From Thermodesulfobacteriota bacterium (GTDB lineage Bacteria; Desulfobacterota_D; UBA1144; Nemesobacterales; JAJCZQ01), in assembly GCA_965203965.1 (NCBI GenBank), contig CBDBDR010000017.1, positions 576,001-640,000 on the forward strand: a stretch of 64,000 bases of DNA, in the 5' to 3' direction. Position 1 is the first letter of the stretch; each line of letters opens with the position of its first letter. Positions 25,560-28,124 of this stretch are shown here, in pieces. Position numbers and translations under genes: made by a program. The notes below the pieces were generated by a model. That model was not told the origin of the DNA. It searched no databases and saw only the letters and a program-made list of their open reading frames with translations.

Positions 25560-26522
25560 ATGAAAAAAAATAACAAAATATTTCCCGTAACACTATTTCA
25601 AGGCACACAGTCCCTTCTCATTGACAGGGAAATAGAAAAGATCAGAGAGATTGAATCCCTTAACTCTCCCGGACTTGATCATTTGACTTTTCATCTGGAC
25701 ACTGACTCAGTTGAGAAAGTAATTAGAGCTGCAAATACCGTTCCAATGTTTGGAGGTCGCAAATTACTGGTTGCCAGAAATGTTGAATCTCTGAATTCAA
25801 AAGAGGTTTCAAAGTTGAATGATTATATTAACACCCCTTCTCCTGACACACTGCTAGTTCTCGTTTCTGAGGGAACGACCAAGCCAAAATTGAAAAAAAA
25901 CAAGAACCTAACAACTGTGAACTTTAATAAGATCAATATGATTGAAAGCAAAATCCAAAAAGAGGCTGAAATACTCGGTGTTAACATTTCAAGGAGGGCG
26001 TGTATGGAAATACACAGGTTGGTAGGTGACGATTTTACCTTGATCAATAACGAGTTGCTTAAAATTTCAAGCTATTTCGGGAATGAAAAATTGATCGATG
26101 AAAAAGACATAGAAAATTTTATCCTGAAAAGAAAAGAGGAAGACGTCTTCAGTTTGGTAAATTCCATTTCCAACGGTCAACTTCAGTCTGCCGTCAAAAT
26201 TCTCAAAAACCTTGAGGATCAGAAATACGAACCTCTTTCAATAGTATCAACTCTGTCATGGCGTATCAGGCAAATCTGGCAGGTGAAAGAGCTTATCAGT
26301 TTGAATAAAAGTGATGATGAAATTATGAAAAAAATGAAAATCTCAAGTGGTGCAGTCTATTACATAAAAAAGCAGGCTGCAAACTTCAGCATTAAATCCC
26401 TTGCAGAAATTACGTCTAAACTGAAGAAAATTGATACTGAACTGAAGTCCTACAATCAAAATAAATACAACTTATTGAGTAGATTTATCGTAAACCTGTG
26501 TAGTGATAGAAGTGATAAATAG
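25560..26522 (+). CDS. holA: DNA polymerase III subunit delta
   Basis: TVPMFGGRKL, NELLK, VFSLVNS, IDTELK; convergent with rpsT as is common. Confidence 0.85.
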   Translation: MKKNNKIFPVTLFQGTQSLLIDREIEKIREIESLNSPGLDHLTFHLDTDSVEKVIRAANTVPMFGGRKLLVARNVESLNSKEVSKLNDYINTPSPDTLLVLVSEGTTKPKLKKNKNLTTVNFNKINMIESKIQKEAEILGVNISRRACMEIHRLVGDDFTLINNELLKISSYFGNEKLIDEKDIENFILKRKEEDVFSLVNSISNGQLQSAVKILKNLEDQKYEPLSIVSTLSWRIRQIWQVKELISLNKSDDEIMKKMKISSGAVYYIKKQAANFSIKSLAEITSKLKKIDTELKSYNQNKYNLLSRFIVNLCSDRSDK

Positions 26523-26524
26523 AA

Positions 26525-27337
26525 TTAGGATATTTTTTCCCAATTCTCGTTGACCCATTCCTTCAGTTTCAATTTCATTTCTTTAGAGATTGGGTAACTC
26601 TCAATTTTGCTGAGGATTTCTTCTGTTGTTATACCTTGCTCTTTGAATTTCTGGATGATCTTCTGATAAAGCTCATTAAAACCATATTTTGCTATCGCGG
26701 CAGAGATTATAGCTAACGCTACAAGGGAAAGAACTCCGCCAATCATTCCACCCAGACCAATTGCCACAAGAGCAGATATAATGGCAGCACCACCAGTATA
26801 GGCAGACATGTGCACCGCTATGAATAGGACGAGAGCTGGAACTCCGATCCCGGCAATAGTTTCAACTGCTTTATCAATACTAACTGAGTCTTTAAGCTTA
26901 TCTATCAGTTTTGCGACCTCTTTGTCTATCTTGTCTATGACTGCTTTGTCAATACTAACTGTGTCTTTAAGCTTATCCATCAGTATTGTGAGCTCTTTGT
27001 CTATTTTGTCTATGGCTGCTTTGTCAATACTAACTGCGTCTTTAAGTTTATCCACTATACTCATCTCTGCCGGCTGCAAGTCGTGAACTTTTTTTGATAG
27101 TCTAGAAATGTTTCTGGATGCATTCCTTTTATGAATAACGCCTTTGGTTGCAGCTTTGTCAAAAGCAGAGATAATGTCTTTCAACCGCTCACTGGCTTTA
27201 TCGGTATTTTTTTCTTCAATTAAAGAAAGTAATGACTTTGTTTTAGTTTTCAGAGTGGTTTTAACAAAGCTGTTTCTCTCTTTTCTTTTAATGCTCTGTC
27301 TTTGCTTTTTCTTTGCTGATGCTTTTCTTAAACCCAT
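26525..27337 (-). CDS. rpsT: 30S ribosomal protein S20 fused to a repeat linker and a hydrophobic C-terminal domain (270 aa)
   Basis: aa 1-88 are S20 (SAKK..RQ...RN, DKAATKGVIHKRNASRNISRL); no stop, frame continues for about 180 more aa. Confidence 0.88.
   Translation of the reverse strand: MGLRKASAKKKQRQSIKRKERNSFVKTTLKTKTKSLLSLIEEKNTDKASERLKDIISAFDKAATKGVIHKRNASRNISRLSKKVHDLQPAEMSIVDKLKDAVSIDKAAIDKIDKELTILMDKLKDTVSIDKAVIDKIDKEVAKLIDKLKDSVSIDKAVETIAGIGVPALVLFIAVHMSAYTGGAAIISALVAIGLGGMIGGVLSLVALAIISAAIAKYGFNELYQKIIQKFKEQGITTEEILSKIESYPISKEMKLKLKEWVNENWEKIS
26864..27052 (-). repeat. 75-bp (25-aa) tandem repeat, about 2.5 copies, inside the rpsT fusion
   Basis: DKLKDAVSIDKAAIDKIDKELTILM / DKLKDTVSIDKAVIDKIDKEVAKLI / DKLKDSVSIDKAV. 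Confidence 0.92.
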
Positions 27338-27479
27338 AATTTCTACATCGTCCTGAAAATTAGAGGTTAGTATTTACATTTATTACACATTTTGTCAAAT
27401 TATATTTACTAAAAAGGCAAAAAATAACGTAACAAATTAAGAATAGCAGTTAGTATTATAAATTTTAAAGGAGACCAAC

Positions 27480-28124
27480 ATGAAATTTTTTCTTGATTCT
27501 GCCAACATGAAAGAAATAAAAGATGCTGCCTCAAGCGGTATCCTTGATGGCGTAACAACTAACCCTTCACTTGTATCCAAAGAGGGAGACCAAAAGGAAT
27601 TTAAGAAACTAATAGTGGAGATTTGCGAAATTGTAAACGGACCCGTAAGTGCTGAAGTAATAAGCACAGAGTTTGACAAGATGGTAGAGGAAGCTGAAAT
27701 ACTTGCAGATCTTCATAAGCACGTGGTTGTAAAGATGCCTATGACCGAAGATGGAATAAGAGCAACAAAATTTGTATCAGATAAAGGAATTAAAGTTAAC
27801 GTAACTCTGGTATTCTCAACCACTCAGGCTTTGCTGGCTGCAAAGGCAGGTGCAAAATATGTAAGTCCCTTTGTTGGTCGTTTGGATGACGTGTCATCTT
27901 CGGGAATGGAACTTGTAGAAAACATTGTTACGGTTTATAACAACTATGACCTCAAAACCGAAATACTTGTCGCAAGTGTAAGGCATCCAATGCACTTAGC
28001 AGAATCTGCACTGCTGGGAGCTGACGTTGCAACTATGCCCTACAAGGTTTTCAAACAACTTTACAAGCACCCGCTAACTGACATCGGACTTGAAAAATTC
28101 CTTTTAGACTGGAAGAAAAAATAA
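27480..28124 (+). CDS. tal: transaldolase (small, FSA-like family)
   Basis: [35 protein letters not shown]; Phe in SPF favours transaldolase over FSA. Confidence 0.9.

Follow-up and report, generated by a model that had tools for sequence, protein, structure and literature searches.

The window analysed here is a stretch of 64,000 nucleotides (positions 576,001 to 640,000 of contig CBDBDR010000017.1) from the genome of a sponge-associated bacterium of the Thermodesulfobacteriota, termed G000 in what follows. On its minus strand lies rpsT, the gene for ribosomal protein bS20, whose reading frame does not close after S20 but runs on through a repeat linker into a hydrophobic, membrane-like module (Table 1). 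A first-pass annotation had described an S20 without its stop codon, followed by about 2.5 repeat copies, a hydrophobic stretch and a charged tail, and all of these are indeed present in a single frame of 270 codons, free of internal stops under translation table 11. The single rpsT of this genome has taken up a small mobile gene in frame at its 3′ end, and several data sets, including RNA libraries, contain the fused frame.

The locus and its fused reading frame

The S20 part passes the curated profile cut-offs over the whole domain. Over amino acids (aa) 6-84 the score with Pfam PF01649 (Ribosomal_S20p; profile positions 4-82 of 83) is 71.2 bits, the cut-off being 29.5, and NCBIfam TIGR00029 matches the fusion with 62.8 bits against a cut-off of 33 (profile positions 5-83 of 84). 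Stand-alone members of bS20 are small (∼85–110 aa), and the fusion at 270 aa is outside that range. The Pfam scan of the fusion finds no domain besides S20. The orthologous position of rpsT is kept: the gene is convergent with holA, a transaldolase-like gene is adjacent, and the neighbours are as in G001, the closest complete relative, which has a 99-aa rpsT, a 97-bp spacer and then holA.

Downstream of the S20 codons, Tandem Repeats Finder reports a tandem repeat at 26865-27054 with a 75-bp period, 2.5 copies and 91% matches, and a repeat search adds a further, decayed copy (60%) that extends into rpsT. The hydrophobic region has one charged residue in its 60, and Kyte-Doolittle means over 19 aa exceed 1.6 at centres 165-211. 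The tail that follows carries nine lysines and arginines and nine aspartates and glutamates.

Table 1. Features of the rpsT fusion and its surroundings in the window (SD, Shine-Dalgarno)
Feature	Position	Strand	Remarks
Whole fused reading frame (bS20, repeat linker, membrane module)	26525..27337	-	270 codons, then stop at 26525-26527
bS20 part, aa 1-88	27074..27337	-	Same residues through Q88 as in the 91-aa S20 of near-identical strains
Junction codons P89-A90-E91-M92	27062..27073	-	Point of departure from the '...HDLQATK*' end of the stand-alone allele
Linker, aa 89-160, predicted amphipathic and helical	26858..27073	-	Translated tandem triplication, 75-bp unit
M120 ATG, start codon of repeat copy 2	26978..26980	-	Weakened SD AAAGAGCT; possible minor internal start
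Repeat copy 3: SD-like AAAGAGGT, 10 nt, ATA (I145)	26903..26923	-	Original start of the module gene, decayed
Hydrophobic Gly/Ala-rich region, aa 161-220	26678..26857	-	Two short helices and the first part of a long helix (predicted)
Charged helical tail, aa 221-270	26528..26677	-	Conserved family motif '...YPISKE.K.KLK...'
Promoter-like site TTGACA-18-AATACT, upstream of rpsT	27369..27398	-	10/12 matches
holA (DNA polymerase III delta)	25560..26522	+	Convergent with the fusion

The fused frame in independent data

No second rpsT, a possibility raised in the first-pass annotation, is found in G000 (17 contigs, 99.48% complete), whose one S20-family match is the fusion; a profile of the module also has a single match there (E = 7.7e-45, profile positions 2-117 of 118). 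The exact 270-aa protein is recorded on two contigs.

At least half of the sampled words of 26400-27500 are present in 12 of the 17 public runs listed; in run X14 the share of words is 0.15. For four of the 17 (X3, X7, X9 and X13) assembled contigs were compared with the window over 25800-28000, a comparison that shows presence and in which gaps in flank cover prove nothing. X3 covers this interval completely with zero differences, and may be the source of this DNA or near it. X7, another DNA sample, has a 1038-nt contig (26349-27387) that spans the junction (∼27073) unchanged; its sole difference from the window is one nucleotide missing at 26533. The RNA library X9, which comes from a different study, has overlapping contigs at 26359-26547, 26493-26837 and 26816-27333; the last of these, 518 nt long, matches the window throughout and joins S20 to the repeats and the beginning of the hydrophobic region. 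X13, an RNA library of a fourth study, covers 26562-27046, inside the module. A stop or indel at the S20 junction, which would have refuted the fusion, is seen in none of the contigs of these four runs. The open frame is not the product of an assembly slip, and the fusion is real and single-copy.

The X7 contig, the only one of that run over 26533, lacks one A of an A-run there, and the deletion replaces the last two residues of the protein by 15 others. The stop is shifted into the antisense of holA, and the resulting protein is the 283-aa P0153. The deletion may be a real variant or a homopolymer error.

Stand-alone S20 in near-identical strains and relatives

The 90%-identity protein cluster that holds the fusion contains, besides P0153, two S20 proteins of 91 aa, P0152 and P0154. 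P0154 is the same as the fusion exactly through Q88, P0152 is so with one substitution (T45P), and both then end in 'ATK*'. The idea that the tail had been inserted at the 3′ end of rpsT is thereby upheld, since S20 of these near-identical strains ends at aa 91 and DNA homology between G000 and the rpsT of G001 stops at about codon 85. Among 41 related genomes S20 was found in 37, and in each of the 17 relatives whose loci were inspected the gene is stand-alone, ending 4–24 residues past the conserved core; the fusion is absent from all 17. A search for longer proteins containing this S20 returned only the fusion itself, a weak negative in that the search works on shared words.

When aa 92-270 were used as the query, no stand-alone module of more than 50% identity was found among proteins of 98-314 aa, and so the strains with the 91-aa allele are probably without the module. 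A metagenome scan with P0152 gave 80 loci, the best at 61% identity, and a near-identical contig was not among them. Judging from these proteins, the fusion allele is recent and polymorphic, and both alleles still circulate. The ratio of non-synonymous to synonymous change (dN/dS) for S20 is 0.05, a tighter constraint than that on the module.

A family of small membrane proteins

The first-pass annotation compared the tail with a stand-alone family of roughly 110 aa beginning MDKxV, and the comparison was apt. A phmmer search with aa 141-270 against 1.84 billion representatives gives 352 members at E ≤ 1e-3 and 145 at E ≤ 1e-10. Among the 150 representatives listed, 100 have no extension of at least 40 aa, 'MDK' is the commonest start and the median length is 121.5 aa. 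By its sequence the tail belongs with small (∼120 aa) membrane proteins that form an unnamed family with the pattern 'MDKxV...GVPGLVL...GAAAIT...YPISKELK', and the invariant or near-invariant Gly, Pro, Ala and Lys columns of the family are present in the module of the window. Where the family typically has a stand-alone gene of ∼120 aa with its own start, the module here is fused to S20 and its near start has decayed to ATA.

Extensions of at least 40 aa are N-terminal in 29 and C-terminal in 21 of the 150 listed. Pfam scans of extended members (n = 41) identified HTH_3, MerR and ankyrin repeats as N-terminal partners, and CN_hydrolase (without its first profile positions), HRDC, Mrr_cat and PAS-GGDEF-HD as C-terminal partners. 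Domains of these types are cytoplasmic. With cytoplasmic partners at either end, both ends of the module probably face the cytoplasm, which would make it a hairpin with an even number of membrane passes.

One extended member runs into what appears, on a reading by eye, to be the C-terminal half of an AAA+ ATPase. In P0018, P0108 and P0084 the module frame reads on into a CN-hydrolase without its first strand, a lone HRDC and an apparent AAA+ C-terminal half; these may be further in-frame captures or metagenome chimeras.

The family is poorly represented in reference collections. Pfam has no family for the module of the window, and stray matches occur in 2 of 56 members. A sequence profile search of the PDB with the module returned only a designed helical repeat (E = 3.9e-4), Foldseek found no PDB match at E ≤ 1e-3, VIA-align gave a best Z of 6.4 for the C-terminal 50 residues only, which is below the noise for helical models, and PHROGs offered nothing meaningful. 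Names in the databases are 'hypothetical' or 'uncharacterized membrane protein' only, and the ESM Atlas has only 'hypothetical protein' clusters. At E ≤ 0.1 there are weak matches to the PADLOC models LeoBC, PDC-M09A and BnzA in 13, 12 and 9 of 56 members, and P0033 matches positions 404-549 of 601 in LeoBC with E = 3.9e-7. The module of the window has no match to any of the three, and the fusion has no GTPase domain. The LeoBC-type likeness is a lead that may reflect only a Gly/Ala-rich hydrophobic composition. One of the 41 extended members, P0011, matches Phage_holin_3_6 with 20.3 bits (cut-off 28.4), and the phage homologs of the module are not beside a lysin.

Mobility of the module

The module is present in three of 101 genomes of the order (G000, G003 and G033), in a different context each time. 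In G033 it is a 233-aa stand-alone protein with C-terminal repeats of its own. Loci gathered with a profile built from a 12-sequence alignment also include phage contigs, on which the homologs sit among head and tail genes. Each of two such homologs is a small, stand-alone, co-oriented gene, lying on viral contig L120 (3989-4342) between the large terminase and portal genes and on viral contig L119 (3992-4369) just upstream of the tape-measure gene.

In G003, which belongs to a sister genus, the module lies in frame inside a molybdopterin/4Fe-4S oxidoreductase with a twin-arginine translocation (Tat) signal (contig G003:C105). The insert is 166 codons long (L003:1453-1950), begins with N, ends with '...TSY' and is placed between host residues '...VSI' and 'SPTLNS...'; the orthologous oxidoreductases of G000 (977 aa) and G002 (979 aa) are uninterrupted. 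The two modules share 77% DNA identity over 408 nt, up to the stop of the G000 copy, and 63–65% aa identity. At the module end G000 has TCC-TAA-TTC and G003 has TCC-TAT-TCT, such that the G003 frame runs on into the host gene.

The proportion of synonymous differences (pS) between the G000 and G003 modules is 0.403 over 127 codons. The host oxidoreductase, compared between G000 and G003, gives 0.689 (912 codons), with 20 of 20 sliding windows of 127 codons at 0.54–0.80, and for the congeneric pair G001 and G003 it gives 0.525. Since the value for the module is below that for its hosts, the ancestor of the two copies is younger than that of the hosts, pointing to separate recent acquisitions. 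A dN/dS of 0.33 indicates purifying selection on the module, which has thus evolved as coding sequence.

A search of the module borders found no terminal inverted repeats, palindromic ends or target duplication. A repeat of the miniature inverted-repeat transposable element (MITE) or Rickettsia palindromic element type was rejected, the module being single-copy in G000 with no terminal repeats and no target duplication. Inteins begin with Cys or Ser, end with His-Asn and are followed by Cys, Ser or Thr; the ends of the G003 insert, N and '...TSY', do not agree with this, and no Hint or intein Pfam family matches the fusion or the inserts of G003 and G001. For a self-splicing intron, Rfam gave zero matches at E ≤ 1 in 26300-27500 and two unrelated ones, at chance level, in L003 1300-2100. 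In GC content, overall and at third codon positions, the module is not anomalous (0.42, where the window has 0.39). Positions 26698-26707, in the module, and 27063-27072, at the rpsT-module junction, form a perfect inverted repeat of 10 nt; by our own rough estimate about 0.2 such pairs are expected in 681 nt, so it is close to chance.

The oxidoreductase has further peculiarities. The G001 ortholog, too, has an in-frame insert, but a different one: its 162 aa lie ∼30 residues upstream of where the G003 module sits (L031:1027-1512, minus strand; G001:C1:299748-300233) and comprise helical repeats rich in charged residues, a hydrophobic hairpin and a tail in which 'ELIEKLGPL' is repeated in tandem. 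This insert has no relative in the 41 genomes searched and no Pfam family, and no general family of inserts can be defined from it. Membrane-like inserts seem to favour this loop of the oxidoreductase. G000 itself has, near a contig end, a second stretch (G000:C13:5100-6389; L024) that shares 75% identity with the first 431 residues of the G003 enzyme and is a paralog or a duplicated fragment.

Origin of the linker and translation starts

That the N-terminus of the module had been amplified was already suspected in the first-pass annotation, and base-level alignment of G000 with G003 agrees: each 75-bp unit corresponds to the module gene's own SD sequence and first codons. The start region of G003 reads AAGGTGAT, 10 nt, ATG-GAG-AAA-GTT-AAA-GAC, its own SD and ATG both intact. 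In G000, copy 3 reads AAAGAGGT, 10 nt, ATA-GAT-AAG-CTT-AAA-GAC; copy 2 reads AAAGAGCT, 10 nt, ATG-GAT-AAG, the ATG being M120; and copy 1 reads ...GCAGAGATGAGTATA-GTG-GAT-AAA and contains M92 and V95. On this alignment, the acidic/basic helical repeat is a former 5′ untranslated region and N-terminus, read in the rpsT frame. Five of the seven differences between repeat units are non-synonymous, as expected of a young linker under little constraint.

SD pairing energies were calculated with an assumed canonical anti-SD and compared with 35 crude gene starts of median −3.1 kcal/mol; random sites give −0.9 kcal/mol. The best value in the linker, −6.5 kcal/mol, belongs to the ATA of copy 3. Those of the candidate internal starts are −2.9 kcal/mol for V95 (GTG), −2.1 kcal/mol for M120 and −1.7 kcal/mol for M92, the last in keeping with an earlier remark that M92 lacks a strong ribosome-binding site; the start of rpsT has −4.0 kcal/mol. 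Because the only good ribosome-binding site of the linker faces a non-start ATA, ribosomes would be expected to reach the module chiefly by reading through from S20, so that it is made as a C-terminal extension of that protein.

The stops of holA, on the plus strand, and of the fusion, on the minus strand, are 2 nt apart (26520-26527), and the 97-bp convergent spacer of G001 is absent. Any terminator of holA or of the fusion must consequently lie inside the other gene. Counts of promoter-like and terminator-like sites around the fusion are not above those in shuffled sequence, and a single terminator-like hairpin (27071-27083) is on the plus strand.

Predicted structure and topology

AlphaFold2 (AF2) modelling of the module with the family alignment gave a mean predicted local distance difference test (pLDDT) score of 93.1. 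The model (130-aa query) has short hydrophobic helices at 26-36 and 43-53, a long helix at 58-93 and two short charged helices. In the model of the full-length protein (pLDDT 77.1, predicted template modelling score 0.44) the S20 part is helical at 2-42, 46-66 and 70-85, as befits a three-helix protein, an agreement with the general picture of S20 rather than with a particular solved structure. Linker helices are predicted at 89-126, 131-151 and 154-164 with pLDDT of 57–80. Hydrophobic residues recur every 3-4 positions along the linker, a spacing that would make it amphipathic and coiled-coil-like. We read aa 161-220 of the model as a putative membrane hairpin. A prediction of a two-copy complex of the module scored 0.01, which tells nothing either way on self-association.

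Capture of a mobile gene and its alternatives

We consider it fairly probable that the recent capture of a mobile gene recorded at this locus yields a membrane-anchored S20, and that the fusion is tolerated as a hitch-hiker and was not designed to tether ribosomes. The mobile gene, of ∼0.5 kb, without a promoter and coding for a predicted membrane-hairpin protein, landed in the last codons of the single-copy rpsT. Three terminal codons of rpsT were lost together with its stop and the spacer to holA, and the insertion came to lie in frame by chance. The 5′ end of the incoming gene (the SD and about the first 14 codons) was tandemly triplicated; read in the rpsT frame, it encodes a linker of ∼70 aa, predicted to be helical and amphipathic. 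Next to the membrane core, the start codon has decayed from ATG to ATA, and the other in-frame starts have weak SDs.

The product would consist of bS20, a helical linker (∼9 nm if fully extended), a membrane hairpin with cytoplasmic ends and a short, cytoplasmic helical tail, and the module would gain the strong expression of rpsT. S20 would stay usable because its linker is long and because its C-terminus should tolerate extensions, given that relatives carry up to 24 extra residues. The cell should also survive a partial loss of S20 function, since model bacteria can do without the protein; one study describes bS20 as a primary 16S-binding protein that is nevertheless non-essential there, its loss slowing growth through initiation defects (PMC10931766).

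Several points weigh against capture followed by mere tolerance. The absence of the module beside the 91-aa allele is deduced from protein records. The synonymous comparison spans 127 codons and is a simple Nei-Gojobori count. Contigs from RNA libraries cannot prove transcription, strand, transcript ends, expression level or a single transcript, and the ∼30-kDa product, its membrane insertion and its assembly into 30S subunits are predictions. The host enzyme in G003 has a Tat signal and hence is exported, a poor fit with a hairpin whose ends are cytoplasmic. Finally, runs of several studies, dated 2016 to 2024, contain the allele; a plainly harmful accident would hardly have persisted so long, and an adaptive value is therefore conceivable.

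One frame could give two products, if proteolysis in the linker frees S20, if an internal start (M120, M92 or the GTG at codon 95) yields the module, or both. The linker is built from copies of the module's translation start region, with an ATG in copy 2 (M120) and a GTG behind an SD-like sequence in copy 1, the SD and ATG of the module are intact inside the G003 host gene, and the cleaved ubiquitin fusions of eukaryotic ribosomal proteins show that such precursors are workable. The internal starts of the linker are nonetheless weakly paired (−1.7 to −2.9 against the median of −3.1 kcal/mol), the strong SD (−6.5) faces ATA, and neither a protease site nor an autoproteolytic domain was found, the Pfam scan showing S20 only. 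We find this reading doubtful.

The fusion might instead have been selected as a tether that anchors 30S subunits or unassembled S20 at the membrane, promoting membrane-proximal translation or coupling a membrane activity to ribosome supply. It would suit such a role that the fusion is the only S20 gene, that the allele recurs across studies and years, with RNA libraries among its sources, that the long helical linker of the AF2 model could bridge ribosome and membrane, that the module, its near start lost, depends on rpsT for expression, and that the module is under purifying selection. Yet the search for longer proteins turned up no second S20 fusion, and 17 of 17 relatives inspected have the stand-alone form; near-identical strains manage without the fusion, whose allele is recent and polymorphic; and the differences between repeat units are mostly non-synonymous (5/7). 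The module has moreover been captured by an unrelated enzyme and is fused to many unrelated domains, and nothing ties it to ribosomes; its presence in frame in an enzyme of a sister genus suggests selfishness or mobility more than a device made for ribosomes. Selection as a tether thus seems unlikely to us.

A broader proposal, which we regard as a long shot, is that the module represents an undescribed class of mobile membrane-hairpin genes that colonise host frames, at their ends or in their middle, always in frame, and anchor soluble proteins. In G000 this class would have produced a working tethered bS20, with most 30S subunits assembled and operating at the inner membrane face.

An artefact, be it a sequencing or assembly error masking a stop or frameshift or a chimeric contig, is very improbable: the genome is of the metagenome type and the X7 deletion at 26533 shows indel variants or errors nearby, but contigs of a further DNA sample and of a separate study's RNA library agree with the window at the junction, two contigs encode exactly this protein, holA follows at once where it should, and the DNA homology with the G003 copy extends exactly to the stop.

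Comparison with known systems

As a gene fusion formed by capture of a mobile gene, the one described here is a known kind of event, well documented and set apart by its unusual host gene, but it is young and polymorphic, with a putative function. A full-text literature search, judged from the openings of abstracts, revealed no precedent for an S20-membrane fusion.

Phage morons are small accessory genes, often for membrane proteins, that lie between conserved phage genes, gp15 of HK97 beside the tape-measure gene being an example. The module resembles them in that its homologs are small co-oriented genes between terminase and portal genes (L120) or upstream of the tape-measure gene (L119), in the patchy distribution of its family and in travelling as a unit with its own SD. 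It differs in being chromosomal here, without an independent start, and fused in frame to a host gene. Rickettsia palindromic elements are selfish DNA found in frame inside protein-coding genes. The likeness is that foreign DNA is kept in host reading frames with the frame intact, as in the G003 oxidoreductase and the S20 fusion; unlike these elements, the module is a whole gene of 0.5 kb whose product is a conserved membrane protein with a predicted fold, is single-copy and has no palindromic ends that we could find.

For the presumed product, mL45 and Mba1 are the nearest parallels: they tether mitochondrial ribosomes to the membrane, mL45 being a large-subunit protein at the exit tunnel with a peripheral association. 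Here too a ribosomal component would link ribosome and membrane, but the component is a small-subunit protein and the predicted link a C-terminal integral hairpin. Some eukaryotic ribosomal proteins are made as ubiquitin fusions, in which the ubiquitin is N-terminal and is cleaved off. The present fusion shares with them a ribosomal protein made as part of a larger precursor, whereas its extension is C-terminal and has no known processing. With the membrane region of the bacterial dynamin-like LeoBC, the weak likeness concerns some members of the module family, and the window's module has neither the match nor the GTPase.

Significance

The finding draws attention to a widespread, uncharacterised family of membrane proteins that is also present on phage contigs. 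The rpsT locus is a gene fusion caught almost in the act, with both alleles still circulating and a linker that can be traced base by base to the ribosome-binding site of the newcomer. Taken with the related module that another host gene has captured in a sister genus, it illustrates how new multidomain proteins and new linkers can arise from mobile small genes. If the 30-kDa protein is made and enters ribosomes, nature would have tried out in this bacterium what happens when a primary assembly protein fixes the small subunit to the membrane.

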